From assembly GCA_035686425.1 (NCBI GenBank), contig DASRZL010000126.1, positions 1,712-65,711 on the forward strand: a DNA stretch of 64,000 nt, in the 5' to 3' direction. Numbering within the stretch: position 1 is the stretch's first letter; the number at the start of each line of letters is the position of its first letter. Below the pieces are notes generated by a model that saw nothing but the letters and a program-made list of their open reading frames with translations, was not told the origin of the DNA and did not search any database. A program made the translations under genes and the position numbers. The stretch is from Thermoleophilia bacterium (GTDB lineage: Bacteria; Actinomycetota; Thermoleophilia; UBA2241). Shown here piece by piece: positions 10,097 to 51,617 of this stretch.

Positions 10097-11184
10097 GCAC
10101 GCCCTTGGAGTCCATGCCCTCCAAAGGTATCCCGGCGTTCCGCATCGCGCGGTCGGCGCCGATGCACCGCTACGTGCTCATCGTGTTCCTGGCGGTCGTC
10201 GCCGTGCTCGCCAGTGTGCCCTTCTGGGCGCAGACCGGCACGATCCGGACCTTGGTGACCTTCTTCACCCTGCTGGCCCTCGCCCAGATGTGGAACCTGC
10301 TCGGCGGCTACGCCGGCCTCATCTCCGTAGGCCAGCAGGCCTACGTCGGCCTCGGCGCCTACGGCGTGTGGCTGATCGCCGACATCCTGGGCCTCCACCC
10401 CTTCATCGCGGTGCCACTCGCCGGCGTACTGGCGGCGGTCGTCGCGCTGCCGGTCGGCCCGCTGCTGTTCCGCCTCAAAGGCGGCTACTTCGCCATCGGC
10501 ACGTGGGTCGTGGCTGAGGTCGTGCGGCTGATCGTCGCCAACATCCAGGCGACGGGCGGAGGCTCCGGCAAGACCATCCTGTCGGCCGCCCGCCTGCCCA
10601 TCGACACGCGCATCCAGGGCACGTACTTCCTGGGGCTGGGCGTCGCCGTCGGCTCCATCCTCCTGGTGTACTTCCTCCTGCGCTCGCGCGTAGGCTTGGC
10701 CCTCACGGCCATCCGGGACAACGACCTGGCCGCGCAGAGCTCCGGCGTGAACGTGTTCCGATCCAAGCTGCTCGTCTACGTGATCGCGGCCTTCGGCTGC
10801 GGCGCCATGGGCGCCGTCGTCGCCCTGAACCTGCTCCGCATCCAGCCGACGGCCGCGTTCAGCATCAACTGGACGGCGTACGCGCTGTTCATCGTGGTCA
10901 TCGGCGGCTTCGGCACGATCGAGGGTCCGATCATCGGCTCGGTCATCTACTTCGCGCTCCTGCAGAACCTGAGTCAGTACGGCACGTCGTACCTGCTCCT
11001 GCTCGGCGTGATCGCTGTGATCATGGCGGCGAAGGCGCCGCGCGGCATCTGGGGCTTCGTCGCGAAGCGCTGGAACATCCACCTGTTCCCGGTCCGGCGC
11101 CGGCTTGTGTTGGAGGCGCCACCCCCGGGTGACGACGGTGGGCCGGCAGACGCGTCGGATCCGCCCCTCGCGGAGCCCGCCTGA
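10093..11184 (+). CDS. Branched-chain amino acid ABC transporter permease (LivM-like)
   Basis: Hydrophobic 363-aa protein, overlaps LivH-like stop; completes SBP-ATPase-ATPase-permease-permease operon. Confidence 0.8.
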   Translation: MSTPLESMPSKGIPAFRIARSAPMHRYVLIVFLAVVAVLASVPFWAQTGTIRTLVTFFTLLALAQMWNLLGGYAGLISVGQQAYVGLGAYGVWLIADILGLHPFIAVPLAGVLAAVVALPVGPLLFRLKGGYFAIGTWVVAEVVRLIVANIQATGGGSGKTILSAARLPIDTRIQGTYFLGLGVAVGSILLVYFLLRSRVGLALTAIRDNDLAAQSSGVNVFRSKLLVYVIAAFGCGAMGAVVALNLLRIQPTAAFSINWTAYALFIVVIGGFGTIEGPIIGSVIYFALLQNLSQYGTSYLLLLGVIAVIMAAKAPRGIWGFVAKRWNIHLFPVRRRLVLEAPPPGDDGGPADASDPPLAEPA

Positions 11185-12314: not shown

Positions 12315-12926
12315 TCAGCCGGGCCTGATCACCCGCGTCTCGGTGACGATCGCCGTCACCGGAAGGTCATGCGTCTCGCACACGATCCGGGGCATCAGTT
12401 GCGTCTCGAACGCGAGGGCGACCCAGGGCGTGCCCGGGCGGGTGAGCCGAAGGTAGGTGTCGTAGAAGCCGCCGCCGTAGCCGCAGCGGCCTCCCTCCTC
12501 ATCGAACGCCGAACCCGGTACGAACACGATGTCCATCTCCTCCGGAGGGATCTCGAGCAGCCCCTCTCGCGGCTCGGGGATGCCCCAGGTCCCGGCGACG
12601 AGGTCCGAGGCCGGATCGGTGACGCGGAACGCCTCCATCGTCCGGGCGCTGCGGATGCGCGGCAGGCAGAGCGTCTTGCCGGCCGCGAGCACCCGCTCCG
12701 CGAGCGGCGCGGTGTCGAGCTCGGTGCGGAACGAGGCGAACGACATGACGGTACCGGCGGCGGCCAGCTCGGGGAGGCTGGCGGCGCGGGCGCACACGGC
12801 CGCGCTGAGGCGTTCGCGCTCCGCCGCGGGCAGGGCGGCACGAGCGTCGAGGCCGCAGCGGCGTGCCTCCGTCTTGAGGAGGCCCTCGCCGTCTTCGTCG
12901 GGTCGTTGTTCTCGTTCTGGCGTCAT
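12315..12926 (-). CDS. 5-formyltetrahydrofolate cyclo-ligase
   Basis: MTHFS family motifs (GxGYYD-like GGGFYDTYL near the C-terminus); start taken at internal ATG (MTPEREQ). Confidence 0.7.
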   Translation of the reverse strand: MTPEREQRPDEDGEGLLKTEARRCGLDARAALPAAERERLSAAVCARAASLPELAAAGTVMSFASFRTELDTAPLAERVLAAGKTLCLPRIRSARTMEAFRVTDPASDLVAGTWGIPEPREGLLEIPPEEMDIVFVPGSAFDEEGGRCGYGGGFYDTYLRLTRPGTPWVALAFETQLMPRIVCETHDLPVTAIVTETRVIRPG

Positions 12927-36872: not shown

Positions 36873-37056
36873 CTTTACTGCGCGGACCCCTTGCCTTCCG
36901 GCATTCCTTGCGCATATCTTTCGCTCGGTGATCAATCTGCGTCACGATCGATACCGCGGACCGAGGGGGTGGACCACACAGCGACAGTCGTGAGAACCAG
37001 TAGTAAGCGGATTGTCGCCGGGGCACGGCCGGGAGTCCGCCAACAAGGGGGGTAGT

Positions 37057-38682
37057 GTGGCAGAAGAACTCGCTTTCGCACGAAAGGCCAGCGGCCTGGT
37101 CCGCGGCCTCTCCATGACCGACGCCATCGCCGTCGGCATGATGAACCAGGGCATCACGCCCAGCATCTGGACGATGATCACCTGGGGCCTCGGCACCTAC
37201 CTGACCGGTAACCTGCTCTGGGCCAGCATCATCTCGCTCGTGCTCGTCGGCTTCGGCTTCCCGCTCGTCTGGGGCGTGCTCTCCGGGAGCATGCCGCGCT
37301 CGGGCGGTGAGTACATCTACAACTCGCGCATCATCCACCCGATCGTCGGCATCGCCGAGAGCTTCGGCAACGCCTTCGTGATGATCTTCTGGGTCTACAT
37401 CCTGGCGCCGTGGATCGCCGACCCCGGGCTCGTGATCTTCGCCGAGTACCAGGGCTGGACCTGGCTCTACGACTCGGCCACCGGAGCCTTCTTCGGCGGC
37501 CTCTCTTACGACTGGGGCGTGTTCGTCGTCGCCACCGTCTCCAACATCATCGCCTTCTTCACGGTCGTCTTCGGCATGAAGATCTTCGCCACCGTGCAGA
37601 AGACGATCATGGGCTTCGCCCTCGGCGGCGCCGCCGTGGTCACCGGGGCGATCATGTTCAGCAGCAAGGACGGCTTCGCCGAGAAGTGGGACGCGATCGC
37701 CGCCCAGTACGACTCGCTCGCCTACTCCGAGGTCGTGCCCGCGGTGTCGGCCGCCATCGGCGAGGCGGTGCCGACGAGCTCGACCTTCTACGGCACCCTC
37801 GGCGTCATGGTCGCCGGCTCGTGGCTGTTCGCCTACGCCTACTTCTGCGTCTTCGTCGCCGGCGAGGTCAAGCGCCCCGACAAGACGCTGATCACGGCCA
37901 ACTTCATCGCCATCCTGATCCCCGCCTGCTTCATGATCTGGACGGCGCTGGCGATGTACCGGACGATGCCCTTCGACTTCATCTCGGCGACCGCCTGGAT
38001 CGACAACAACGGCGGCATCGAGGGCTACAACCTGCCCTACCTGCCGAGTTACATGAGCCTCGCCTACATCGCCCACTCGAACTGGTTCATCGCCCTGGCG
38101 GCGAGCGGTTCCTACATCCTCTTCACCTTCTGGTATCTCTCGCTCAGCTACCTCGCCTTCCCGCGCATCATCTTCGCCTGGGGCATGGACCGCATGGGTC
38201 CCAAGTGGTTCACCTCGATCAACCCGCGGTGGGCGAGCCCGGTGAAGAACTACATCCTCTGCTTCGTCCTCTGCCAGGGTGCGATCGCGCTCTACACCTT
38301 CTGGCTGGGCAGCTACATGCAGGGCCTCACCGTGACCGGCATGGAGATCGTCTCGGTCTGGGGCGTGACCACCATCGCCGCGCTCATCTTCCCCTACGTG
38401 AAGCGCGCCAAGGGCATCTGGGAGTCCTCGCCCTACCGCACCTGGAAGTTCCTCGGCGTGCCGCTCGTCTCCTGGGGCGCCCTGGCTTCTCTGGTCTACC
38501 TGGGCATCCTCTTCTACTTCCTCATCTTCACCGAGGAGATGAAGGACTCCAACGGCCAGTCGTGGATCCTCTACGGCATCGTCTGGATCATCGGTATCCT
38601 CTGGTACTTCTTCTGGGCGGCGCGCAGCAAGAGCGTCGGCGTCGACGTCGGTATGACCTACGGGGAGCTGCCGCCGGAGTGA
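37057..38682 (+). CDS. APC superfamily amino acid/polyamine transporter
   Basis: About 540 aa, 12+ TM helices; GTG start chosen by homology with paralog start MAEELAFARKASGLVRGLSM. Confidence 0.7.
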   Translation: MAEELAFARKASGLVRGLSMTDAIAVGMMNQGITPSIWTMITWGLGTYLTGNLLWASIISLVLVGFGFPLVWGVLSGSMPRSGGEYIYNSRIIHPIVGIAESFGNAFVMIFWVYILAPWIADPGLVIFAEYQGWTWLYDSATGAFFGGLSYDWGVFVVATVSNIIAFFTVVFGMKIFATVQKTIMGFALGGAAVVTGAIMFSSKDGFAEKWDAIAAQYDSLAYSEVVPAVSAAIGEAVPTSSTFYGTLGVMVAGSWLFAYAYFCVFVAGEVKRPDKTLITANFIAILIPACFMIWTALAMYRTMPFDFISATAWIDNNGGIEGYNLPYLPSYMSLAYIAHSNWFIALAASGSYILFTFWYLSLSYLAFPRIIFAWGMDRMGPKWFTSINPRWASPVKNYILCFVLCQGAIALYTFWLGSYMQGLTVTGMEIVSVWGVTTIAALIFPYVKRAKGIWESSPYRTWKFLGVPLVSWGALASLVYLGILFYFLIFTEEMKDSNGQSWILYGIVWIIGILWYFFWAARSKSVGVDVGMTYGELPPE

Positions 38683-39025: not shown

Positions 39026-39517
39026 TTGCCATTCTCCCTCGATACGATCGACAGGCAGATCGTGTCACTTCTCATAGAAGACGGCCGCGTCTCCTCGGCC
39101 GAGATCACCCGGCGCATCGGGCACGTCTCCGAGCGCGCCGTGCGCTACCGGATCGAGCGCCTGATTCGCACGGGGGTGATCCGCGTGAGCGCCATCGTCA
39201 TGCCCCAGGCCGTCGGCTTCGAAGTCACGGGCGACGTGCTCGTCGATGTCGCCCCCGGCAAGCTGCAGGACGTCGCCGCGCAGCTGGTCGAGTTCCCCAC
39301 GGTGAGCTACGTGGCCGGATCGGTCGGCGAAGGCGACCTCAGTGTGCAGATCTACGCACGGGACACCGAGGAGCTCCTCCGCTTCGTCAACGAGGTCATC
39401 GGCAAGGTCCCTGGAGTCACGCGCACCAAACTCGCCATGGTGCCGTGGAAGCTCAAGGACGTGTATCAGTGGCACGTGCCCCCTGAGGCCGCTGAGGAAG
39501 GGAGGGCGATCGGCTGA
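39026..39517 (+). CDS. Lrp/AsnC family transcriptional regulator
   Basis: IDRQIVSLLIEDGRVSSAEITRRIG HTH plus RAM domain; TTG start. Confidence 0.8.
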   Translation: MPFSLDTIDRQIVSLLIEDGRVSSAEITRRIGHVSERAVRYRIERLIRTGVIRVSAIVMPQAVGFEVTGDVLVDVAPGKLQDVAAQLVEFPTVSYVAGSVGEGDLSVQIYARDTEELLRFVNEVIGKVPGVTRTKLAMVPWKLKDVYQWHVPPEAAEEGRAIG

Positions 39518-39611: not shown

Positions 39612-41267
39612 ATGGCTGAAGAACTAGCGTTTGCTCGCAAAGCCAGCGGCCTGGTCCGCGGCCTCTCCATGTGGGACGCGTTCGGCGTCGGGTTCATGAA
39701 CCAGGGGCTCACGCCCTCGATCTGGGTCATGACCAGCCTCGGCGTCGGCGTCTACCTGGGCGGCAACCTCGTCTGGGCGACCATCATCTCGATGATCCTC
39801 GCCGGCATCGGCTTCCCGATCGTCTGGGGCGTGCTCGGCGGCTCCATGCCTCGTTCGGGCGGCGAGTACATCTACAACTCGCGCATCCTGCACCCCATCG
39901 TGGGCATCGGCGAGTCGTTCGGCAACGCCTTCGTGTGGATCCTCTGGATCTACGTGCTGGCGCCCTGGCTGGCCGACCCCGGCATGGTCATGATGTCGCA
40001 GTTCATGGACTGGTCGTGGCTCTACGACAGCGCCAACGAGACGTTCTTCGGCGGCCTCAGCTACGCGTGGGGCAGCTTCGTCATCGCCACGATCGCCAAC
40101 ATCATCGCGTTCCTGTTCGTGGTGTGGGGCATCAAGTGGTTCGCGCGCATCCAGAAGGTCGTCATGATCTTCGGCATCGGCGGCTGCATCGTCCTGCTCG
40201 GCGCCATCACCTACTACGCCATGAAGCTCGGCCAGACCGGGTTCGTGGAGAGCTGGAACGCCACAGCCACGACGTACGGCTCGATCGACTACGCCGGCTT
40301 CCTCGCGGGGGCCAGCGAAGAGGCCGGTCAGATGATGCCGACCTCCTGGAACTGGTTCGACACGTTCGGCGTCATGGTCGCCGGCTCGTGGCTCTTCGCC
40401 TACAGCTACTGCATCACGTTCATCGCCGGTGAAGTGAAGCGCCCCGACAAGACCATCATCCTGTCGAATCTCTTCGCGATTCTCGTCCCCGGCTTCTTCA
40501 TGCTGTGGGCGGCCCTCGCACTCTACGGCCTGGTCAAGTTCGACTTCTTCTCGGCGACGCAGTTCATCGACAATGCCGGCAGCGACCTCGGCGGCGCCTA
40601 CACCGTGCCGTGGAGTACGAACTTCCTCGGCATCCTCGCCATGGTGACCGCCAACAAGGTCGTCCTGTTCATCTCGGTGCTGTCGTTCCTCGCCTTCGAC
40701 CTGTGGTGGGTCGCGCTCAGCTACCTGGCGTTCCCGCGCATCCTCTTCGCGTGGGGCATGGACCGCATGGGTCCCAAGTGGTTCACGGACATCAACCCGC
40801 GGTTCGCCAGCCCCGTGAAGAACCACGTCCTCTGCTTCGTCCTCGGCCAGATCATGATCGCCTTGTACGTCTTCTGGCAGAACGAAGCGATGCAGGGCCT
40901 GGCAGTCACGGCCCTGGAGATCTTCTCGGTGTTCGGCGTCACGGCTATCGCGGCGCTGGTCTTCCCCTATGTCAAGCGCGCCAGAGGCATCTGGGACGCG
41001 TCTCCGTACAAGACCTGGAGGCTCGCCGGCATCCCGGTAGTCACGATCGGCGCCATCGTCGACCTGATTTACCTGGGCATCCTGGCCTACTTCTTCTTCT
41101 TCCTGCCCGACCCCGCCAAGCGCCTCGAGGGCTTCACCACCTCGACGGGCCTGGTGATCGCCATCACGTGGATCTTGGGCATCATCTGGTATTTCTTCTG
41201 GAAGCAGCGCAGCAAGAGCGTAGGCGTCGACGTTTCGATGACCTATGGCGAGTTGCCGCCTGAGTGA
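39612..41267 (+). CDS. APC superfamily transporter (tandem paralog of 37057..38682)
   Basis: Near-colinear identity with upstream permease (same N-terminal MAEELAFARKASGLVRGLSM, same C-terminal KSVGVDV.MTYGELPPE). Confidence 0.75.
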   Translation: MAEELAFARKASGLVRGLSMWDAFGVGFMNQGLTPSIWVMTSLGVGVYLGGNLVWATIISMILAGIGFPIVWGVLGGSMPRSGGEYIYNSRILHPIVGIGESFGNAFVWILWIYVLAPWLADPGMVMMSQFMDWSWLYDSANETFFGGLSYAWGSFVIATIANIIAFLFVVWGIKWFARIQKVVMIFGIGGCIVLLGAITYYAMKLGQTGFVESWNATATTYGSIDYAGFLAGASEEAGQMMPTSWNWFDTFGVMVAGSWLFAYSYCITFIAGEVKRPDKTIILSNLFAILVPGFFMLWAALALYGLVKFDFFSATQFIDNAGSDLGGAYTVPWSTNFLGILAMVTANKVVLFISVLSFLAFDLWWVALSYLAFPRILFAWGMDRMGPKWFTDINPRFASPVKNHVLCFVLGQIMIALYVFWQNEAMQGLAVTALEIFSVFGVTAIAALVFPYVKRARGIWDASPYKTWRLAGIPVVTIGAIVDLIYLGILAYFFFFLPDPAKRLEGFTTSTGLVIAITWILGIIWYFFWKQRSKSVGVDVSMTYGELPPE

Positions 41268-41334: not shown

Positions 41335-42267
41335 ATGATCAAGCTGTTTTTCGTCACCGACATCCACGGCTCGAACGTGTGCTACCGGAAGTTCCTGAAC
41401 GCCCTTCCGATCTACGGAGCCGACGTGGCCGTCCTTCTGGGTGACCTGACCGGCAAGGTCCTCGTCCCGCTCGTGGACAAGGGCGGGGACCAGTGGGAAT
41501 GCACCCTGATGGGGCAGTACCGCGAGATCAACGGGCAAGAGGAGCTCGCGGAGATCAAGAAGATCGTCGAGAACGCCGGCTACTACTGGGTCCACCAGAC
41601 GCGCGAGGAGTTCGACGATACGCGCGCCGACCCGGCCAAGATCGACGCGCTGTTCAAGAGCCTCGTCTTCCAGCGCGTGCAGGAGTGGCTCGACCTCGCC
41701 GACGAGCGACTCGAGGGCAAGCCCTACCAGATGTACATGGCGCCGGGGAACGACGACTGGTTCGTGATCGACGACATGATCGACAACGCCAAGCTCGTGC
41801 ACCCCTGTGACAAGCGTGTCGTCGAGATCGACCATCACGAGATGATCACCTCGTCGGCGTCCAACCCGACGCCTTGGGACACGCCGCGCGAGATGAGCGA
41901 GGACGACCTCGAGGTGCACCTGCGCGAGCTGTGCGCCAAGGTCAAGAACCAGGGCACGGCGATCTACAACTTCCACGTGCCGCCCTACGGCTACTCGCTC
42001 GACCTGTGCCCCAAGCTCGATGAGAACCTGACCATGGCCGCCGACGAGAAGATCCACGCCGGCAGCATGGGCGCCAAGCGGGTCATCGAGGAGTTCCAGC
42101 CGCTGCTCGGCCTGCACGGCCACATCCACGAGTCACGCGGTGCACAGAAAGCCGGGCGCACGCTGCTCATCAACCCGGGCAGCGAGTACTCTGAGGGCAT
42201 CCTCAAGGGCGTCATCATCATGCTCGACAAGAAGAAGGTCAAGGACTACGTCTTCACCTCCGGGTGA
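41335..42267 (+). CDS. Metallophosphoesterase (calcineurin-like phosphoesterase)
   Basis: FFVTDIHGS, LLGDLTG, GNDD, GHIH motifs. Confidence 0.75.
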   Translation: MIKLFFVTDIHGSNVCYRKFLNALPIYGADVAVLLGDLTGKVLVPLVDKGGDQWECTLMGQYREINGQEELAEIKKIVENAGYYWVHQTREEFDDTRADPAKIDALFKSLVFQRVQEWLDLADERLEGKPYQMYMAPGNDDWFVIDDMIDNAKLVHPCDKRVVEIDHHEMITSSASNPTPWDTPREMSEDDLEVHLRELCAKVKNQGTAIYNFHVPPYGYSLDLCPKLDENLTMAADEKIHAGSMGAKRVIEEFQPLLGLHGHIHESRGAQKAGRTLLINPGSEYSEGILKGVIIMLDKKKVKDYVFTSG

Positions 42268-42328
42268 GCGGCGCGTAGACTCCATCTTTCGAGACGACGC
42301 CGAACCCGGAAGGGGGCGATAGGTAGAT

Positions 42329-43135
42329 ATGGGACAGTTCATCCTGCCGAAGGACATTCCACTCGACCGCTATCCCAAGCCCGAGGTCTTCCTCGAGGAG
42401 GGCAAACGGATCACGGAAGCAGCGCAGAAGCAGGGCATCATCATGCGCGTCATGGGCCCGCTTGCGCTGCACTACTACTTCCCGGACCAGGTCGACCTGT
42501 ACGCCAAGCTCGAGCGTCTGGGCGACCGCTACTTCACCGACATCGACTACGCCGTCTACGGCAAGGGCCGCAAGGGCATGGCCAAGCTGATGGAGTCGCT
42601 CGGCTACGAGAACGATCTCCAGACCATGGCCATGACCGGGCAGACCCGCCAGATCTACTTCGGCGGCAAGGTCCCCATGATCGATATCTTCTTCGACAAG
42701 CTCGACTACTGCCACGAGATCGATTACGCGGGGCGCCTCGAGCTCGATCCCTGGAGTGTCTCGCTCGCCGACATCCTGCTGCAGAAGCTGCAGATCTGGG
42801 AGATCAACGACAAGGACCTCAAGGACATCGAGTACCTGTTCACCGTCGCCGACTTCGGCGAGGACGACACCAGGAAGGTCAACGTCGGCTACATCTCCAG
42901 GCGTTTCGCCGACGACTGGGGCTTCTGGTACACCGCGACCACCAACCTCGACCGCGTCAAGGACCACGTCGACGGCGTGGACGCCCTGAGCCCCGACCAG
43001 AAGGCCAAGATCAAGCAGGTGGCCGACGACGTCAGGGCGCGGATCGACCAGGAGCCCAAGACGCGCAAGTGGGAGAAGCGCGCCAAGAAGGGCACCAAGA
43101 AGATCTGGTACAACACCGGTTTCTCCGACTGGTGA
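42329..43135 (+). CDS. Hypothetical protein
   Basis: 268-aa ORF with AGGTAG RBS-like spacer and good coding statistics; no family recognised. Confidence 0.5.
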   Translation: MGQFILPKDIPLDRYPKPEVFLEEGKRITEAAQKQGIIMRVMGPLALHYYFPDQVDLYAKLERLGDRYFTDIDYAVYGKGRKGMAKLMESLGYENDLQTMAMTGQTRQIYFGGKVPMIDIFFDKLDYCHEIDYAGRLELDPWSVSLADILLQKLQIWEINDKDLKDIEYLFTVADFGEDDTRKVNVGYISRRFADDWGFWYTATTNLDRVKDHVDGVDALSPDQKAKIKQVADDVRARIDQEPKTRKWEKRAKKGTKKIWYNTGFSDW

Positions 43136-43262
43136 TCCCGGGCCGGCCCGCCTTCGGCGGCGGCAGCCGGACGGTGTGACGACAAGAGGGCCGGGGCGCC
43201 AACGGCGCCCCGGCCCTCTTCGCGCTGCCGGCAGCCACCCCCCTGCCGCGGCCGGCGCGCCG

Positions 43263-44654
43263 TCAGTGCGCGATGAGCGCGCCCTTCTCGATCAGCACGC
43301 GCACATCGGCGAGCGTGGCCTCGAGGCGCTCCAGCACCTGGTCCATCTGTTCGTACGTGATGATCGCCGGCGGCTGCATGCGCAGGGTCAGGGAGTTGAA
43401 GAGCGTGCCGCCGATGAGCACGGCGCGGCTGAAGAGCCCCTGGCTCACGGCGTAGCCGATGTCGGAGTCCCTGAACTGCATGCCGATGATCACGCCGACG
43501 CCTCGGACCTCCTCGAAGAGGTCCGGGTAGCGGCCGGCGAGCTCGGTGAGCTTGCCCTTGAGGTAGGCGCCCTTCTCCGCCGCCTGACCCGGGATGTCCT
43601 CCTCCAGCGTGGCGTGCAGAGCGCCGATCGCCGCTGCCGTGGCCATCGGGTTGCCGCCGAACGTCGTCGTGTGGATGTACGGGTTGTCGTACATGGTCGA
43701 GAAGACGTCCTCGGTGGCGATGAAGTTGCCGATCGGGATGACCGCGCCGCCGAGGGCCTTGCCCATGGTCATGATGTCCGGGGCCACTCCCGAGTGTTCC
43801 ATCCCCCAGAGCTTGCCCGTGCGGCCCATTCCGGTCTGCACCTCGTCGGCGATGAGCAGAATGCCCCACTTGTCGCAGATCTCGCGGACCTTGGGGAAGT
43901 AGTCGGCCGGTGGGATGATCGCGCCGGCCTCGCCCTGCACGGGCTCCGCGATGAATGCGGCGATGTCAAGGCCTACCGCGTCGCAGATGCCGAGCTGTTT
44001 GTCGAGGGCGTCGGCGTCGCCGTAGGGCACGAAGCGCACGCCCGACATGAGCGGATTGAAGGGCTCGCGGAACTCGCCCTTGCCGCTGACGCTGAGGGAG
44101 CCGAAGGATTTGCCGTGAAAGCCGCGCGTCGTGGAGATGATACCGAGCGTGTGGTTGGGCTTCTTGCGTCGCGCCCACAGCTTGGCGATCTTCATGGCGC
44201 CCTCGTTGGCCTCGGTGCCGGAGTTGCAGAAGAAGGAGTACCGCAGGTCGCCGGGCGTGACCATGGCGAGCAGGTGGCTGAGATAGCCGCGCATCGGGTC
44301 CAGGAGCTCCTGCGAGTGCAGCGCCTGATGCTCGAGCTGGTCACGGACGGCCTTGACCACAGTGGGGTGCCGGTGCCCGAGCATGTAGATGCCGAAGCCG
44401 CCGAGGCAGTCGATGTACTCCTTGCCGTGGATGTCGTAGAAGACCGAGCCCTCGTCGCGCCACTCGACCGACGTGTAGTCCGTCGAGACGGACTTGCGAT
44501 ACTCGAGGATGCCGGGGTTGACGTAGCGGTCGAAGTTCGTCACGCAATCGGTCACGACCGCCTGCTGTTCGTCGGCGCTGAGCACGGATTTCGACATCAG
44601 GTCCAGCGCCTTGCGCGATTCTCGCAATACCTCTTGCCTCGCTGCGTCCTGCAT
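43263..44654 (-). CDS. Class III aminotransferase (putrescine/acetylornithine/GABA aminotransferase family)
   Basis: PLP-lysine motif region (DEVQTGMGRTGKLW), GGFGIYMLGH; start at ATG MQDAARQ with GGGGGAA RBS. Confidence 0.8.
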   Translation of the reverse strand: MQDAARQEVLRESRKALDLMSKSVLSADEQQAVVTDCVTNFDRYVNPGILEYRKSVSTDYTSVEWRDEGSVFYDIHGKEYIDCLGGFGIYMLGHRHPTVVKAVRDQLEHQALHSQELLDPMRGYLSHLLAMVTPGDLRYSFFCNSGTEANEGAMKIAKLWARRKKPNHTLGIISTTRGFHGKSFGSLSVSGKGEFREPFNPLMSGVRFVPYGDADALDKQLGICDAVGLDIAAFIAEPVQGEAGAIIPPADYFPKVREICDKWGILLIADEVQTGMGRTGKLWGMEHSGVAPDIMTMGKALGGAVIPIGNFIATEDVFSTMYDNPYIHTTTFGGNPMATAAAIGALHATLEEDIPGQAAEKGAYLKGKLTELAGRYPDLFEEVRGVGVIIGMQFRDSDIGYAVSQGLFSRAVLIGGTLFNSLTLRMQPPAIITYEQMDQVLERLEATLADVRVLIEKGALIAH

Positions 44655-44943
44655 TCGTTCCCCCTGTGTCAGAAGCGATGACCGCAGAATCACTTGATTT
44701 GCAGTATAGTTCGGACAACCGACCGAACCAGGACTCCAATCTATCCCGATAGGCTCGGCGGTGCAACGGTCATCTGTCCGCCGACCGCCGCAATCGACTT
44801 CCCTCGTAGTGGGGGGTGAAGCACGGTACGCTGGACCAGCCGGTGGACCGCATGGTCGAAGTCACGTGGGCCGAGGTGCGTCATCGGCTGCTGCAGGGCG
44901 GGGAGCTCGCGTGGGACGCGCTCGACGGGAAGGAAAGGGTCAA

Positions 44944-45243
44944 ATGGCTGATGGAGTGAGAGGCGACGCCGCGTACACGCCGTCGGAGGCGGTCGTGGCC
45001 CGCGAGATCGAGGGCGAGATCGTCATCGTGCCGCTGACGGCGGGGATCGGCGATCTCGAGGACGAGTTGTACTCGTTGAACGAGACCGGCAAGGACGTAT
45101 GGCGGCTGCTCGATGGGCGCACGGTGGATGAGGTCGTCGAAGCTCTGACGGCAGAGTACGACGCCTCGCGCGAAGAGATCGACCGCGACGTCTGCGGGCT
45201 GCTCGAGGAGTTGCTGCGCCGCGACATCGTGCGCGCGGCCTGA
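44944..45243 (+). CDS. PqqD family protein (RiPP recognition element, lasso-peptide B1-like)
   Basis: YSLNETGKDVWRLLDGRTVDEVVEALTAEYDASREEIDRDVCGLLEELL matches the lasso B1/PqqD RRE consensus closely. Confidence 0.75.
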   Translation: MADGVRGDAAYTPSEAVVAREIEGEIVIVPLTAGIGDLEDELYSLNETGKDVWRLLDGRTVDEVVEALTAEYDASREEIDRDVCGLLEELLRRDIVRAA

Positions 45244-45296
45244 CGGCCTCGGGCGAAGGGCGGTCGGGACTGACTGAAGAGGCCCCCAGGATCGGC

Positions 45297-47093
45297 GTGC
45301 ACAGCGTCCTGCACCTGGGGCGCACCCTGCGCCTCGTGTGGCGCATCGCGCCCGGGTGGACCGTCGCGACGATCGCGCTCGCAGTCGTCCAGGGCGTCCT
45401 GCCGCTCGCCGGCCTCTACATGATCCAGCTCATCGTGAACGCGGTGAGCGATGGCCTCAATGCGGTCGACAAGAGCGCCGCCTTCAGGGAGGTCGCGTGG
45501 CTGATCGTGATCGCCGGGGTGATCGGTCTGGCGTCGGCGCTGGCGCGTTCCATCTCGACGCTGGTCAGCGAGGCGCAGGGCCAGGTCGTCACCGACCATA
45601 TGTCGGACCTCATCCACTCGCAGTCGATGGCCGTCGACCTCGAGTACTACGAGAACTCGAAGTACTACGACGTCTTGCATCGGGCACAGCAGGAGGCGCC
45701 CTACCGGCCGACCAAGATCGTCAACGATCTCGTCATGGTGGGCCAGAGCAGCATCACGCTTGTCGGCGTGATCGGCATCCTGTTCTCGATCCACTGGAGC
45801 GTCGGGTTGATCATCGTGGCCGCCGCCCTGCCCAGCGCCTACGTGCGGCTGCGCTACTCGCAGCGCCTGTATCGTTGGGAGACCGATCGCACGGACTCCG
45901 ATCGCCGCTCGTGGTACCTGCACTGGTTGCTCACGGACGGCAGCTACGCCAAGGAGATCCGCCTCTTCGACCTGGGCGAGACCTTTCGTGGCTGGTTCAA
46001 GGAACTGCGCGGCGTGCTCCGCGGCGAGCGCCTGCGCATCACGGCGCGGCGCTCGCTCGCGGATCTCGCCAGCCAGACCGTGGCCACTCTGGCCGTGTTC
46101 GGCACCTTCGCCTACATCGCCTGGCGCACCCTGCAGGGCAGCATCACCATCGGCGCCATGATGATGTACTACACGGCCTTCAACACCGGCCTGAGTGCAT
46201 TGCAGAGCGTGCTCGGTGGGGTCGCGGGGTTGTACGAGGACAACCTCTTCCTGACCTACTACCATGAGTTCATGGCCCTGGGACCCAAGGTCGTGGACCC
46301 GGCGGCGCCGCGCCCGGTGCCGAAGCCGATGCGGGAGGGGGTCGTCTTCGAGGGCGTGAACTTCAACTACCCGGACACCGAGCGGACGGCTCTCGCCGAC
46401 GTCGACCTGCACATCAGGCCCGGCGAGGTGACCGCGCTCGTGGGCGCCAACGGCTCGGGCAAGACGACCATCGTCAAGCTCCTCTGCCGCCTCTACGATC
46501 CGCAAAGCGGCCGAGTGACTCTCGACGGTGTGGACCTGCGCGACCTGCCCGTGTCCGACCTGCGACGCGGCATCAGCGTGATCTTCCAGGACTTCGCCAA
46601 GTACCAGCTCACGGCGCGCCAGAACATCTGGATCGGCAACGTCGCGCGGCCGCAGGACGATCCGGCGATCGAGGAGGCCGCGCGCGCCGCCGGCGCCGAC
46701 GCCGTGATCGCCGAACTCGGCCGCGGCTACAACTCGATGCTGGGCAAGTGGTTCGAGGACGGTGAAGAGCTGAGCATCGGCGAGTGGCAGAGGGTGGCAC
46801 TGGCGCGCGCCTTCGTGCGCGACGCGGAGATCCTCGTCTTCGACGAGCCGACGAGCGCTCTCGATCCGGTGAGCGAGTGGCAGGCGTTCGAGCACATCCG
46901 CGCCCTCTCGAAGGGCCGCGCCGTGGTGCTCATCAGTCATCGCTTCTCGACGGTGCGCAACGCCGACCGCATCCACATCCTCGAGCAAGGGCGCATCGTC
47001 GAGAGCGGCGCGCACGCGGAGCTGATGCGGCTCGACGGGCGCTACGCGCGCATGTACGAAGTGCAGGCGCGCGCCTACCAGAACGAGGACTGA
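45297..47093 (+). CDS. ABC transporter permease/ATP-binding protein (type I exporter, McjD/MsbA-like)
   Basis: N-terminal 6-TM domain plus C-terminal NBD (GANGSGKTT, LSIGEWQR, LVFDEPTSALD). Confidence 0.85.
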   Translation: MHSVLHLGRTLRLVWRIAPGWTVATIALAVVQGVLPLAGLYMIQLIVNAVSDGLNAVDKSAAFREVAWLIVIAGVIGLASALARSISTLVSEAQGQVVTDHMSDLIHSQSMAVDLEYYENSKYYDVLHRAQQEAPYRPTKIVNDLVMVGQSSITLVGVIGILFSIHWSVGLIIVAAALPSAYVRLRYSQRLYRWETDRTDSDRRSWYLHWLLTDGSYAKEIRLFDLGETFRGWFKELRGVLRGERLRITARRSLADLASQTVATLAVFGTFAYIAWRTLQGSITIGAMMMYYTAFNTGLSALQSVLGGVAGLYEDNLFLTYYHEFMALGPKVVDPAAPRPVPKPMREGVVFEGVNFNYPDTERTALADVDLHIRPGEVTALVGANGSGKTTIVKLLCRLYDPQSGRVTLDGVDLRDLPVSDLRRGISVIFQDFAKYQLTARQNIWIGNVARPQDDPAIEEAARAAGADAVIAELGRGYNSMLGKWFEDGEELSIGEWQRVALARAFVRDAEILVFDEPTSALDPVSEWQAFEHIRALSKGRAVVLISHRFSTVRNADRIHILEQGRIVESGAHAELMRLDGRYARMYEVQARAYQNED

Positions 47094-47185
47094 CCGCCTC
47101 GCGCTGTCGCGCGAGCGCACGCCGCTACCTGCCTCGGCGAGGTCCTCGGTCCGCCGGCGGGGCGCCATCGCGGGGATGGTAGGGT

Positions 47186-47818
47186 GTGGCGCACGAGGGG
47201 AGCATGATCGGCACCGACAGACTGACAGAGGATCCGACCGCCCAGCTGTCGCCGACGGCGCAGAAGCTGGTTGCCGCCGCGCGCCGTCTGCTCGCGCGCG
47301 GCGGGTACGAGGCGCTCACCGTCGAGGCCGTCGCCGCGGAGGCCGGGGCCTACCGAGATTCCGTCAGGTACTACTTCGGCAGCAAGGCGGCCTTCATCGC
47401 CGCCGTGGTCGATTCCCTGAGTCACGACCAGAGCCTGAGCGCGGTGGTGGAGACGCAGGCGGCGAGGGGCGGCGACGAACGCGTCCGCGGGCTCGTCGCC
47501 GGCGATCGCCGCCTCGTGGACGATCGCGCCGCCTTCCGCGACTTCTTCGCCATCCTCCCGCACGTCGTCCTTGACGACGAGCTGCGCGAACGGGTCGCGG
47601 CTCTCTACGAGTGGTACCGCGACCTCTACGTGGAGGGCCTCGGCGATGCGACCACCGCTGGGGAAGAGCGGCTGCGCCGCTTCGCCTCACTCATGGTCGC
47701 CATGACGGACGGCCTCGCCGTCCAGAAGCTGCTCGACCCCGACGGGGTCGACCTCGGACCGCTCTTCGAGCTGTGGGAGAGCATGCTCCGCAAGGCGCTG
47801 CTCTCCACCGCCGACTGA
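47186..47818 (+). CDS. TetR/AcrR family transcriptional regulator
   Basis: N-terminal HTH (GYEALTVEAVAAEAGAYRDSVRYYFGSK); start may be ATG 47204. Confidence 0.75.
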   Translation: MAHEGSMIGTDRLTEDPTAQLSPTAQKLVAAARRLLARGGYEALTVEAVAAEAGAYRDSVRYYFGSKAAFIAAVVDSLSHDQSLSAVVETQAARGGDERVRGLVAGDRRLVDDRAAFRDFFAILPHVVLDDELRERVAALYEWYRDLYVEGLGDATTAGEERLRRFASLMVAMTDGLAVQKLLDPDGVDLGPLFELWESMLRKALLSTAD

Positions 47819-47997
47819 GGCGGCTGCGCGGGCCGTCCCTGATCGCCCAGGGACGGTGGTCGTCTCCCCGCGGCCGTCTCCGGCTCATTTACAGGCCCCA
47901 GACCGTGTTGTACGCTCGCGACGTGCTTGCGGTACCGCATGGGGGGTCCCGCCGGCCGCGAGGCCAGCACACGGCTTCTTCGTAGGAGGGAAGGGTC

Positions 47998-48201
47998 TTG
48001 GCGCAGGGGAGCGTGAAGTGGTTCAGCAACGAGAAGGGGTATGGCTTCATCGAGCGGGAAGATGGTGACGACCTGTTCGTGCACTACTCCGAGATCACCA
48101 TGGACGGCTACAAGACGCTCGTCCAGGGCCAGCACGTCGAGTTCGAGGTCACCGAGGGCGACAAGGGCCTGCAGGCCTCTACGGTGAGGCCGGTCGCCTA
48201 G
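47998..48201 (+). CDS. Cold-shock protein (CspA family)
   Basis: [18 protein letters not shown]1 motif, 67 aa; TTG start; TAG stop. Confidence 0.85.
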
Positions 48202-48217
48202 TCCAGGAGAGCGCGCA

Positions 48218-48260
48218 GGGGGGTCCCGCCGGAGGCTTTGCCGGCGGGGCCCCCTTTTCT
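48218..48260 (+). terminator. Canonical rho-independent terminator after cspA
   Basis: GGGGGGTCCCGCCGG-AGGCTTTG-CCGGCGGGGCCCCC followed by TTTTCTT. Confidence 0.7.
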
Positions 48261-48329
48261 TGTAGGGCTTCTGAGGCTGGAGTAGGATAGCCGTCCCGCT
48301 TCGGCGGCCCGCAGCAGGAGGAGCGCGAC

Positions 48330-48611
48330 ATGATCTCCGAAGACGACGTCCGCTACGTCGCGAAACTCGCCCGTCTCCGCATCGAACAGGATGAGGCGGC
48401 GCGCATGACCGGCGAGCTGGCCAGGATCCTCGCTCATATCGACAAGATGAGCGAGCTCGAGCTGGCCGACGTGCCGCCGACCGCGCACGTCCTCGACGTC
48501 GTGAACGTCACGCGCGCCGACCGCGAGCGTCCGAGCCTTCCGCGTGACGAGGCGCTCCGCAATGCCCCCGCCGTCGCCGACGAGTGCTTCCGCGTGCCGA
48601 GGATGGGCTGA
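48330..48611 (+). CDS. gatC: Asp-tRNA(Asn)/Glu-tRNA(Gln) amidotransferase subunit C
   Basis: VAKLARL...DE motif, 93 aa, immediately upstream of gatA. Confidence 0.85.
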   Translation: MISEDDVRYVAKLARLRIEQDEAARMTGELARILAHIDKMSELELADVPPTAHVLDVVNVTRADRERPSLPRDEALRNAPAVADECFRVPRMG

Positions 48612-48612
48612 C

Positions 48613-50115
48613 GTGACGGCGCTGGATCCACTGCGTCTCACGGCGCGCGACGCCAAGCGGCTGCTTGTGGACGGGGAGATCTCCTCCGCCGAACTCGCCA
48701 AGGTCTACCTCGATCAGATCGGTGCGGTCGAGTCCAGGGTGCGCGCCTACATCCTCGTGACCGCGGACAACGCCGCCAAGTACTCGACGAAGGTCGACCG
48801 GGAGATGCAGGCGATGCGCGGTCCGCTCGCGGGTCTTCCCATCGCCGTCAAGGACAACATGGTCACCGAGGGCGTCACCACCACCTGCGCCTCGAAGATC
48901 CTGCGCAACTACCAACCGGTCTACACGGCCACGGCGGTGCGCCAGGTGTGGGAGGACCACGTGGTCATGCTGGGCAAGACCAACCTCGACGAGTTCGCCA
49001 TGGGCTCGAGCACCGAGAACTCGTCGTACCAGGTCACGGCCAATCCCTGGGACCTCTCCACCGTGCCGGGCGGCAGCAGCGGCGGCTCTGCCGCCGCCGT
49101 GGCCGCCGGTGAGACTCTGTGGGCGCTGGGCAGCGACACAGGCGGCTCCATCCGTCAGCCGGCCGCCCTGTGCGGCATCGTCGGCATGAAGCCTACCTAC
49201 GGCGCCGTGAGCCGCTACGGGCTCATCGCCTTCGCCAGCTCGCTCGACCAGATCGGGCCGCTCACACGCTCCGTCTACGATTGCGCGCTGCTGCTTCAGC
49301 ACATCGCCGGGCGCGACCTGCGGGACTCGACCAGCGTCGAACTGCCCGAGCCGGTCGCGCTGCCGACGGCAGAGCGGCTCGACGGGCTGCGCGTCGGCGT
49401 GCCGTCCGAGTACCTGGCCGCCGGCATCGAGCCCGGAGTGCGGGCACGCTTCGACGAGACGCTCGCGCGCGTCGAGGAGCTTGGCGGCGCGTGCGTCGAG
49501 ATCAGCCTGCCACACACGGAGTACGCCCTGCCGGCGTACTACATCATCGCCCCGGCCGAGGCGAGCGCGAACCTCGCCCGCTTCGACGGCGTCCGCTACG
49601 GCTACCGCTGCGCCGACCCGGTCGACTTGCGCGATCTCTACGAACGTACTCGCGGGGAGGGGTTCGGCCCGGAGGTCAAGCGCCGCATCATGATCGGCAC
49701 GTACGCGCTGTCGGCCGGCTACTACGACGCCTACTACGGGCGCGCCCAGAAGGTGCGCACCATGGTGCGCCGCGACTTCGACCGCGCCTTCGGCGACGTC
49801 GACCTGATCGCCTCGCCGACGTCGCCGACCGTCGCCTTCAAGGCCGGCTCGCGCACCGCCGACCCGCTCGCCATGTACGTCAGTGACATCTGCACGATCC
49901 CGGTGAACCTCGCCGGCCTGCCTGCGATCAGCATCCCCTGCGGTCTCAGCGACGGTCTGCCGGTGGGCTTCCAGCTCATCGGACCGGCCTTCAGCGAGAA
50001 CCGCATCCTTTCGGCTGCGCACGCGCTCGAGGGCACGATCGGCTTCGACACGGCGCCGGCCTTCCGCGACTCCGGCGCCGGTGATCTGGGCGTCGGCGAG
50101 GAGGCAGCGCAGTGA
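48613..50115 (+). CDS. gatA: Glutamyl-tRNA(Gln) amidotransferase subunit A
   Basis: Amidase signature GGSSGGSAAAVAAG, catalytic K/S/S. Confidence 0.9.
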   Translation: MTALDPLRLTARDAKRLLVDGEISSAELAKVYLDQIGAVESRVRAYILVTADNAAKYSTKVDREMQAMRGPLAGLPIAVKDNMVTEGVTTTCASKILRNYQPVYTATAVRQVWEDHVVMLGKTNLDEFAMGSSTENSSYQVTANPWDLSTVPGGSSGGSAAAVAAGETLWALGSDTGGSIRQPAALCGIVGMKPTYGAVSRYGLIAFASSLDQIGPLTRSVYDCALLLQHIAGRDLRDSTSVELPEPVALPTAERLDGLRVGVPSEYLAAGIEPGVRARFDETLARVEELGGACVEISLPHTEYALPAYYIIAPAEASANLARFDGVRYGYRCADPVDLRDLYERTRGEGFGPEVKRRIMIGTYALSAGYYDAYYGRAQKVRTMVRRDFDRAFGDVDLIASPTSPTVAFKAGSRTADPLAMYVSDICTIPVNLAGLPAISIPCGLSDGLPVGFQLIGPAFSENRILSAAHALEGTIGFDTAPAFRDSGAGDLGVGEEAAQ

Positions 50116-51617
50116 ACAGCCACCGTGGGGGAGCTGTCGAGCCGGGTACCGGAGGCGCATCACTCCGTGCCTGGGAGCCGGTGATCGGGCTCGAGATGCA
50201 CGTCGAGCTCGACACGCAGACCAAGATGTTCTGCGGTTGCGCCGTCGCCAAGGGCGACGACCCCAACACCCACACCTGTCCGGTCTGCCTGGCTCACCCC
50301 GGCGCGCTGCCGGTGGTGAACCGGCGCGCCGTCGAGTACGCGGCGCGCATCGCGCTGGCGCTGCACTGCACCGTGCAGCCGCGCAACATCTTCCACCGCA
50401 AGAACTACTTCTATCCGGACCTGCCCAAGGCGTATCAGATCAGCCAGTATGACGAGCCGCTCGCGACTGCGGGGTGGTTCGAGTACTGGGTGGCCGGCGA
50501 GAACCTCCGTTGCCGCATCAATCGCGTGCACATGGAGGAGGACGCCGCCAAGCTCATCCACGCCGGCGGCGACACCGGGCGCATCGCCGGCTCGGACTAT
50601 TCGATGGTCGACTTCAATCGCGGCGGCACGCCGCTCATCGAGATCGTCACCGAGCCGGACATCCCGTCGCCGGAGGCGGCCCGCGAGTTCCTCCAGCAGC
50701 TGCGCAACCTCGTCGTCGAGCTGGGCGTCAGCGAGTGCAACATGGAGGAGGGGCAGATCCGCTGGGACGCCAACATCAGCATTCGGCCGGAGGGTAGCGA
50801 GGATCTCGGGACGCGCACCGAGCTCAAGAACATGAACAGCTTCCGCTACCTGCAGCAGGCCCTGGACGCGGAGATCCCCCGCCAGATCGAGATCCTCGAG
50901 GCCGGCGGGACGATCGATCTCGAGACCCTGCACTTCGACCCCGACACCGGCACCACGACGCCGCTGCGCAGCAAGGAGGAGGCGCACGACTACCGGTACT
51001 TCCCGGAGCCCGACCTGGTGCCTCTGGAGATCGATCCGGCCTGGGTGGAGGAGCTGCGCGCGACGCAGCCGGAGTTGCCGGCGGCGCGCGTGGAGCGCTT
51101 CACGACCGTCTACGGCCTCTCGCGTGCCGATGCCACCGTGCTCGGCTCGTCGGGGGCGCTCGCCGGGTTCTACGAGGAGGTCGTCGCGGCCGGGGTCGGC
51201 GCCAAGCCGGCGGCCAACTGGACGATGGGCGAGTACCTCGCCCATCTCAACGCCGCCGGCCTCGAGGCCGGCCACGGCCACGTCACTGCGGAGCGGCTCG
51301 CCAGGCTCGTGAAGCTCGTCGAGGAGGGGACCGTCTCGACGAGCGCCGGCAAGGAGGTCTTCGCGCACATGATCGAGGAGCGCGACGAGCCAGAAGCCAT
51401 GATCGAGAAGCACGGCCTCGGTCAGATCAGCGACTCGGCGGAGCTCGAGGCCATCGTCGCCGAGGTCGTGGCCGCCAACCCGGCCCAGGCCGAGCAGTAC
51501 CGCGGCGGCAAGCAGCAGATCATCGGCTTCTTCGTCGGCCAGGTGATGAAGGCCAGTGGTGGGCGCGCCAACCCCAAGGTCGTGAACGACCTTCTCCGGC
51601 GCGACCTCGACGCATGA
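50112..51617 (+). CDS. gatB: Aspartyl/glutamyl-tRNA amidotransferase subunit B
   Basis: VIGLEMHVEL...CGC..C...HPGALP N-terminal GatB signature; start choice uncertain. Confidence 0.9.
   Translation: MNSHRGGAVEPGTGGASLRAWEPVIGLEMHVELDTQTKMFCGCAVAKGDDPNTHTCPVCLAHPGALPVVNRRAVEYAARIALALHCTVQPRNIFHRKNYFYPDLPKAYQISQYDEPLATAGWFEYWVAGENLRCRINRVHMEEDAAKLIHAGGDTGRIAGSDYSMVDFNRGGTPLIEIVTEPDIPSPEAAREFLQQLRNLVVELGVSECNMEEGQIRWDANISIRPEGSEDLGTRTELKNMNSFRYLQQALDAEIPRQIEILEAGGTIDLETLHFDPDTGTTTPLRSKEEAHDYRYFPEPDLVPLEIDPAWVEELRATQPELPAARVERFTTVYGLSRADATVLGSSGALAGFYEEVVAAGVGAKPAANWTMGEYLAHLNAAGLEAGHGHVTAERLARLVKLVEEGTVSTSAGKEVFAHMIEERDEPEAMIEKHGLGQISDSAELEAIVAEVVAANPAQAEQYRGGKQQIIGFFVGQVMKASGGRANPKVVNDLLRRDLDA

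Follow-up and report, generated by a model that had tools for sequence, protein, structure and literature searches.

Deletion of a radical-SAM peptide cassette probably left an orphan PqqD-family protein beside an ABC exporter in a Thermoleophilia bacterium

The recognition element (RRE) of peptides that are ribosomally synthesised and then modified post-translationally (RiPPs) binds leader peptides, and the PqqD protein of pyrroloquinoline quinone (PQQ) biosynthesis presents its peptide to a radical-S-adenosylmethionine (radical-SAM)/SPASM enzyme. Small PqqD-family proteins are also found in lasso-peptide clusters, as B1 proteins, and in the SynChlorMet (SCM) system, which was reportedly defined by Haft in 2011 and is represented by the models TIGR04248 (ScmD), TIGR04249 (ScmC), TIGR04250 (ScmE) and TIGR04251 (ScmF), together with Pfam PF27840 for ScmC. 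Among bacteriocin non-producers, orphan immunity genes are a recognised phenomenon (PMC10598978). Here, we analyse a 64,000-nucleotide stretch of a Thermoleophilia genome (contig DASRZL010000126.1, hereafter the window), in which a PqqD-family RRE gene is followed by genes for an ATP-binding cassette (ABC) exporter and a TetR regulator. A preliminary description of this locus had proposed an orphan RRE of the lasso type, with a small upstream open reading frame (ORF) as its candidate precursor or leader peptide. In our reading, to which we assign a probability of roughly 0.85, the locus is a deletion remnant of a radical-SAM RiPP cassette, with PqqD, ABC and TetR most likely kept as an efflux/immunity module. 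The elements of the locus are the following, in window coordinates.

44701..44728, plus strand: conserved 28-nt motif GCAGTATAGTTCGGACAACCGACCGAAC, with one sequence throughout the four genomes of the deleted lineage and no second copy in the window
44783..44800, no strand: junction of deletion 1, with left-flank homology to 44782–44791 and right-flank homology from 44801 (blastn)
44791..44959, plus strand: 3′ remnant (pseudogene fragment) of a radical-SAM maturase gene, located by tblastn and holding the small ORF 44816–44959
44944–45243, plus strand: intact gene for the 99-aa PqqD-family RRE (Pfam PF05402)
45244..45253, no strand: junction of deletion 2, where homology ends at the PqqD stop (45243) and restarts at 45253/45254
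45254..45277, plus strand: final 8 codons (RRAVGTD*) of an NTP_transf_5 gene that is otherwise deleted, matching the end of the gene in L077 (...YARRAVGTD*)
45297–47093, plus strand: intact gene for a 598-aa ABC exporter, a type IV (MsbA/ABCB-like) half-transporter (Pfam ABC_membrane and ABC_tran)
47186–47818, plus strand: TetR-family regulator (Pfam TetR_N and TetR_C_6)

A protein search with the window PqqD returned 649 homologs of about 100 aa, several of them annotated as Thermoleophilia and others 56–65% identical in quite different phyla. Three Thermoleophilia relatives with identical flanking synteny (L077, L001 and L009) are intact, and the window forms a deleted lineage together with L006, L078 and L079. 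The intact relatives hold the PqqD–ABC pair inside a complete cluster at 85–91% nucleotide identity. L001, whose PqqD is 85% identical to the window copy (90% in L077), shares with the window both its upstream flank (AsnC, permease, 268-aa protein and minus-strand aminotransferase) and its downstream flank (598-aa ABC gene, TetR and gatCAB), and carries two extra blocks between them: the aminotransferase is followed, before PqqD, by one ScmC-family and one radical-SAM gene, and PqqD is separated from the ABC gene by a 165-aa gene, a small gene and an NTP_transf_5 gene. The order in L077 is ScmC-like (336 aa), radical-SAM (388 aa), PqqD, S24-like peptidase bearing a GFSMDP motif, 57-aa Cys-rich precursor (MKGWIRPQLVVLGRATPEESVLEVCKNHEVAGQFATGYDRCSWNSQNTNNCRGVTGS), NTP_transf_5 and ABC, with the radical-SAM stop codon overlapping the PqqD start.

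Comparison of the window with L001, L077 and L009 by blastn gave collinear blocks with the same two breaks in all three. Deletion 1 (~2.1 kb) took the ScmC-like gene and, of the radical-SAM maturase, codons 1 to ~330, and the right-flank homology that follows it corresponds to the last ~145 nt of the radical-SAM gene. Deletion 2 (~2.2 kb) took the genes for the S24-like peptidase and the 57-aa precursor, as well as nearly all of NTP_transf_5. Because stumps of the radical-SAM and NTP_transf_5 genes remain, these events are deletions in the window lineage and not insertions in the relatives. A look for microhomology at the two junctions found nothing convincing. Nucleotide identity to the window is 96.8% over 42000–48500 for L006, the Thermoleophilia metagenome-assembled genome (MAG) MFD09779.bin.2.149, and 97.8% for L078, and the PqqD of L079 is identical. 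The deletion architecture is a lineage trait, since it is common to four separate assemblies (window, L006, L078 and L079), and the shared junctions also rule out an assembly artefact. Two side observations concern the intact relatives: the radical-SAM gene of L001 is split over two frames (L001:6849–8016), and the PqqD match of L009 covers only residues 1–80 (L009:7001–7240), reflecting either early decay there too or indel errors. The MFD assemblies are presumably long-read.

The small ORF at 44816–44959 is part of the radical-SAM stump. It exists with the translation first quoted and overlaps the RRE start, but its coordinates had been given 13 nt off, as 44803–44946; the overlap with the PqqD start is 16 nt. 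When the 388-aa L077 maturase was used as a tblastn query, its residues 321–388 aligned to 44756–44956 (E = 1.4e-13, 53% identity), and the small ORF corresponds to the 3′-terminal ~58 codons of this gene. The stump has an in-frame TAG at 44807–44809 and has lost the C-terminal cysteines. It is 73–76% identical in nucleotides to the intact copies, with 9–15 gap columns, and the intact copies of this region are 89–94% identical to each other and gap-free. Within the deleted lineage, the 143 nt of the stump have taken up 19 substitutions as well as 3 indel columns; the GTG start of the small ORF has become GCG in L006 and L078, and the frame is shifted and start-less in 97%-identical relatives. 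No Pfam or NCBIfam family matches the small ORF. Its proposed role as a precursor or leader is ruled out by the homology to the maturase C-terminus, the upstream in-frame stop, the frameshifts and the loss of the start. The high third-position GC content of the ORF, judged by eye, fits a piece left over from a larger gene, from which it would have been inherited, better than an independent small gene. Indel errors of Nanopore reads are an unlikely source of the frameshifts: 2 indels fall in the 143-nt stump of L006 but not one in the L006 matches to PqqD, ABC or TetR, and a frameshift in the stump is also present in the JGI contig L078. Of the explanations offered in the preliminary description, the decayed cluster was right, because intact relatives were found and the small ORF, whose conservation had been named as a test, is not conserved.

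All differences among the window, L079, L078 and L006 post-date the deletions. Within this lineage, PqqD has acquired 8 synonymous and 5 nonsynonymous substitutions (binomial test against neutrality, P = 0.006). It has no indels, and the rate seen in the stump would predict 6.2 (Poisson P = 0.002). The ABC gene shows 31 synonymous and 14 nonsynonymous substitutions and no indels (P = 7e-10), and TetR shows 18 and 8, respectively. Pairwise ratios of nonsynonymous to synonymous divergence (dN/dS) for PqqD are 0.15–0.23 between the window and the intact lineages, 0.10–0.16 among the intact lineages, and 0.50 between the window and L078. At the nucleotide level, PqqD shows ~89% identity, with 33 differences over 297 nt in a gap-free alignment, against 73–76% with gaps for the stump. 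All family-invariant residues are retained in the window PqqD, and its lineage-specific changes fall on variable positions, mostly to residues common in the family. Judged by these substitution patterns, PqqD, ABC and TetR appear to have stayed under purifying selection since the deletions.

Orphan PqqD homologs are also present at L014:6947–7306 and L026:6983–7309. They are 66% identical to each other, have the family motifs intact, and lie between a beta-galactosidase gene and genes for class-V aminotransferase, ARMT1-like and transglutaminase-like proteins, with no radical-SAM or ABC gene nearby. The two genomes are only ~75% identical in nucleotides, yet the surroundings of the gene, which are not those of a RiPP cluster, are syntenic. 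The pair is a second, independent case in support of orphan persistence in this family.

For the wider family, 158 loci were fetched and cassette genes were located in them by tblastn; in 91 of these loci the PqqD homolog is flanked by 1.5 kb or more on either side. Within 4 kb of it, radical-SAM, ScmC-like or S24-like genes lie in 88 of the 91; a precursor is recognisable in 62, NTP_transf_5 is present in 19, and an ABC gene more than 40% identical to that of the window in 15. No lasso cyclase or B2 protease stands beside any of the ~90 related loci. The lasso parentage first proposed for the locus is replaced by an SCM-related radical-SAM cassette: the RRE–ABC pair was indeed found inside an intact cluster of relatives, as the preliminary description had suggested looking for, but the cluster is of the radical-SAM and not of the lasso kind. 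Because homologs of the exporter, 48–65% identical, adjoin the cassette in several phyla (e.g. L012, L028, L036, L064 and L104), the ABC exporter is a recurrent cassette accessory.

The parent cassette is found at L077:4840–11372, L004:4811–10167 and ~88 other loci, which belong to MAGs with the labels Aminicenantes, Omnitrophota, Chloroflexi/Anaerolineae, Deltaproteobacteria/Desulfobacterales and Thermoleophilia and to a Methanospirillum MAG. Optional parts of it are NTP_transf_5 and the ABC gene, its ScmC-like P-loop protein is sometimes fused to a radical-SAM domain, and a further radical-SAM enzyme is often present. The more distant L002 and L004 carry a fused radical-SAM–ScmC gene, a radical-SAM gene, PqqD, an S24-like peptidase, a second radical-SAM gene and a 60-aa peptide. 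Two PqqD genes are seen in the cassettes of L021 and L037, and several precursor genes in L021 (three) and L080 (two, at 1272–1439 and 1708–1878). The precursors are 57–60 aa long, with 3–6 Cys and a leader of the form MKKxWxxPxL[IV][IV]Lx[RK]GxPEExVLxxCK, and 73 of 79 end in Ser. A C-terminal Ser is the residue phosphorylated by the lasso-associated kinase (PMC8498205); by analogy, this suggests that the precursor Ser may be phosphorylated or glycosylated, as in paeninodin and pseudomycoidin. No paper on the parent cassette was found in the searched literature, and it appears to be an uncharacterised SCM-like cassette, related to but distinct from SynChlorMet; we call it a sister and not a member because the SCM models score far below their cut-offs.

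Upstream of the locus, the 28-nt motif combines a −10-like hexamer, TATAGT, with an inverted repeat, GTTCGG-N8-CCGAAC. In L077 and L001 it precedes the cassette, and L001 and L009 have a further copy upstream of tetR. The copies of these last two relatives lie at L001:5634–5661 and 12384–12411 and at L009:11457–11484. The tetR-proximal copy is absent from the window and missing in the window lineage. The motif is a candidate cassette promoter/operator and a candidate TetR operator. Since deletion 1 spared it, PqqD and ABC now lie directly behind the probable regulated cassette promoter. A scan for the sigma-70 consensus called no promoter in 44500–48300, and no terminator was predicted there before the one after cspA. 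The ATG of the PqqD gene is preceded by the Shine-Dalgarno-like sequence AAGGAAAGGG.

The 99-aa product of 44944–45243 belongs firmly to the PqqD family: the search with PF05402 that had been proposed as a check scored 67.4 bits (cut-off 23.4; E = 1.4e-18). An AlphaFold model (mean predicted local distance difference test score, pLDDT, 83.7) shows three strands (E10–13, E17–22 and E25–30) followed by helices, the winged-helix RRE fold. Foldseek gave TbiB1, TfuB1 and PqqD as the best Protein Data Bank (PDB) matches of this model (TM-score 0.71–0.86); TbiB1 is the closest solved structure (TM-score 0.72–0.86, root-mean-square deviation 1.7–2.0, 30% identity) and also the best solved relative in a family-profile search (E = 1.2e-7). 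The earlier assignment as a lasso B1/PqqD-type RRE thus stood as to family and B1-like fold but not as to the lasso type, for which the models score below cut-off (NF033530, 39 bits against 70; NF033536, 32.8 against 80), although a lasso PqqD model is the best single NCBIfam match. The ScmD model TIGR04248 gave 25.4 bits against 100 (E = 1.2e-5) and TIGR03859 gave 32.7 against 46. A tblastn search of the window found no encoded precursor whose leader the PqqD protein might bind.

As to family, the exporter and the regulator are an ABC exporter and a TetR protein, as first described. In the exporter, PF00664 (residues 25–297) is fused to PF00005 (residues 366–520) in one polypeptide, which is 92.6% identical to the L077 copy; its PDB matches are ABCB and MsbA proteins, with full-length alignment to MsbA and Sav1866. 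The regulator matches PF00440 in its N-terminal part (E = 3.6e-11) and PF13977 in its C-terminal ligand domain (E = 7.4e-8), and its gene is syntenic in L001, L009, L006 and L079. The reported lack of lasso C and B2, radical-SAM and YcaO genes in the flanks also held in the gene table and in Pfam and NCBIfam scans, and tblastn with every gene of the intact cassette (L077 and L004 proteins) gave no further match in the 64-kb window. A weak match at 10126–10353 lies inside a branched-chain amino-acid permease gene and is not a lost cassette gene.

These observations can be assembled into the following history. The ancestral cassette opened with its promoter/operator, followed by the genes for a ScmC-like P-loop protein, a radical-SAM maturase, PqqD, an S24-like peptidase, the 57-aa Cys-rich precursor, NTP_transf_5, the ABC exporter and TetR. 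In this Thermoleophilia lineage, the two deletions took every maturase, the peptidase and the precursor, leaving over the radical-SAM 3′ stump and 8 codons of NTP_transf_5, and probably brought PqqD, ABC and TetR directly behind the old cassette promoter. The locus makes no peptide, because neither a precursor nor a maturase is encoded, and the trio has most likely been kept as a regulated efflux/immunity module against a peptide that related strains still make. Several points weigh against this account. The selection test on PqqD comprises 13 substitutions in effectively three lineages, and activity of the locus is predicted from its sequence. A TetR gene beside the ABC gene was seen only in Thermoleophilia relatives, so TetR may not be a general part of the cassette. 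An RRE is not known to have a role in export or immunity, and since its function is to bind leaders, the efflux idea does not predict that it should be retained. The RRE could have been retained for partners elsewhere or for a maturase-independent role.

The last point bears on how the trio is to be understood. A functional stand-alone RRE–exporter–TetR module kept by selection, of which an inducible immunity or 'cheater' device would be one version, is a tentative idea that we think has the lesser share of the probability; if true, the RRE would have a role beyond presentation to maturases, e.g. capturing unprocessed or leader-bearing peptide for export or sensing, and the persistence of the L014 and L026 orphans would reflect the same maturase-independent role. 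About equally doubtful is a pure relic, in which PqqD is merely not yet disrupted and ABC and TetR are a generic efflux pair with no cluster-linked function. The loss of all maturases and the precursor, an RRE left without a known job, the few sites in the PqqD test and the dN/dS of 0.50 against L078 speak for such a relic, whereas the 143 nt of the neighbouring stump have gathered 3 indel columns along with 19 substitutions in the same clade in which PqqD has gathered no indels, PqqD shows a synonymous excess with every invariant residue kept, and L014 and L026 maintain an intact orphan PqqD across ~25% nucleotide divergence.

Less probable again is that the partners of RRE and exporter, a precursor and radical-SAM enzymes, are encoded at another place in the genome; a second cassette or precursor outside the 64 kb searched would make the locus such a trans-acting module, and this too counts against our account, though we consider it improbable. 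Purifying selection on PqqD and its leader-binding fold, which the model predicts to be intact, would agree with a service in trans, as would the duplicated PqqD or precursor genes of L021, L037 and L080 and the orphan homologs of L014 and L026. However, the window holds no homologs of the missing cassette genes, a genome scan gave a single PqqD-family locus for L006, the MAG matching the window, and partners are adjacent in 88 of 91 loci. A lasso B1-type orphan RRE with a McjD-like exporter and the small ORF as precursor or leader is by far the least credible explanation and is refuted by the data. TbiB1 and TfuB1 are the closest solved structures by both sequence and fold and a sub-cut-off lasso model is the best NCBIfam match, but none of the ~90 homologous loci has a cyclase or B2 protease, radical-SAM cassettes standing there instead, the lasso models stay below their thresholds, and the small ORF is a homolog of the maturase C-terminus with an upstream in-frame stop, which near-identical relatives carry with a shifted frame and no start.

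The surroundings of the locus in the window comprise the following genes, as given by the gene table.

37012–38682 and 39612–41267, plus strand: two APC permeases
39026–39517, plus strand: AsnC regulator
41335–42267, plus strand: metallophosphoesterase
42329–43135, plus strand: 268-aa ORF matching no Pfam or NCBIfam family
43263–44654, minus strand: putrescine-type class-III aminotransferase
47998–48201, plus strand: cspA (cold-shock gene)
48330–51617, plus strand: gatCAB

The AsnC regulator is bracketed by the two permeases, which are paralogous members of the APC family, and the 268-aa ORF is kept in synteny among the relatives. Downstream, tetR is separated from gatC by cspA and a strong terminator (48217–48256), an arrangement found in the window, L006, L079 and L009; in L001, tetR and gatC are only ~65 nt apart. 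GC content in the window is 0.63–0.73, and the segment 36000–46000 (0.625–0.666) lies below its flanks (0.68–0.73).

The locus has consequences for genome mining, where an 'orphan RRE' can be a deletion remnant and a gene stump can mimic a precursor ORF; it would be wrong to count either of them as a new class of RiPP. Purifying selection on the RRE and exporter after loss of the maturases suggests a maturase-independent use, in immunity or in trans. More attractive than the remnant is the parent cassette, with its many uncultured anaerobic lineages and well-defined precursor family, and it shares the kinase, nucleotidyltransferase and C-terminal Ser signature of phosphorylated lasso peptides.

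Among described systems, SynChlorMet resembles the intact relatives in a ScmC-like P-loop protein (precomputed PF27840 matches, a family not recovered in the local Pfam scan of the L077 protein; TIGR04249, E = 2.8e-12), in two or three radical-SAM enzymes matching ScmE/ScmF, and in a small PqqD-family protein. It differs in model scores, which reach 25 against a cut-off of 100 for ScmD, 47 against 125 for ScmC and 53–80 against 400 for ScmE/ScmF; the parent cassette adds an S24-like peptidase, often NTP_transf_5, and an ABC exporter, and in the window only the PqqD, ABC and TetR genes are left. The PqqD of PQQ biosynthesis (PDB 3G2B and 5SXY) shares Pfam family, fold and stand-alone RRE character with the window protein, but TIGR03859 scores below cut-off, pqqA, pqqB, pqqC and pqqE are lacking, and the precursor family is another.

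Lasso systems come closest to the window PqqD in solved folds, those of TbiB1 (PDB 5V1U/5V1V) and TfuB1 (PDB 6JX3). Lasso clusters with phosphorylated or glycosylated products (paeninodin, pseudomycoidin) have in common with the intact cassette that the RRE stands alone and is accompanied by an HPr-kinase-like P-loop protein, a PF14907 nucleotidyltransferase, an ABC exporter and a Ser-ending precursor. However, no asparagine-synthetase-like cyclase, transglutaminase-like B2 or lasso-type core peptide is present in the related loci, and radical-SAM enzymes with an S24-like peptidase take the place of cyclase and B2.

Bacteriocin non-producers, finally, offer the parallel of an exporter and regulator that outlast the biosynthetic genes (PMC10598978), as ABC and TetR, apparently under purifying selection, do here. 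Unlike them, the window locus keeps an RRE beside the exporter, and an immunity role would be assigned to it by analogy. We know of no precedent for an RRE retained alongside an exporter. Set against these systems, the locus records an ordinary event, the reductive decay of a biosynthetic cluster, made modestly interesting by the twist of probable selection on the orphan RRE and exporter.

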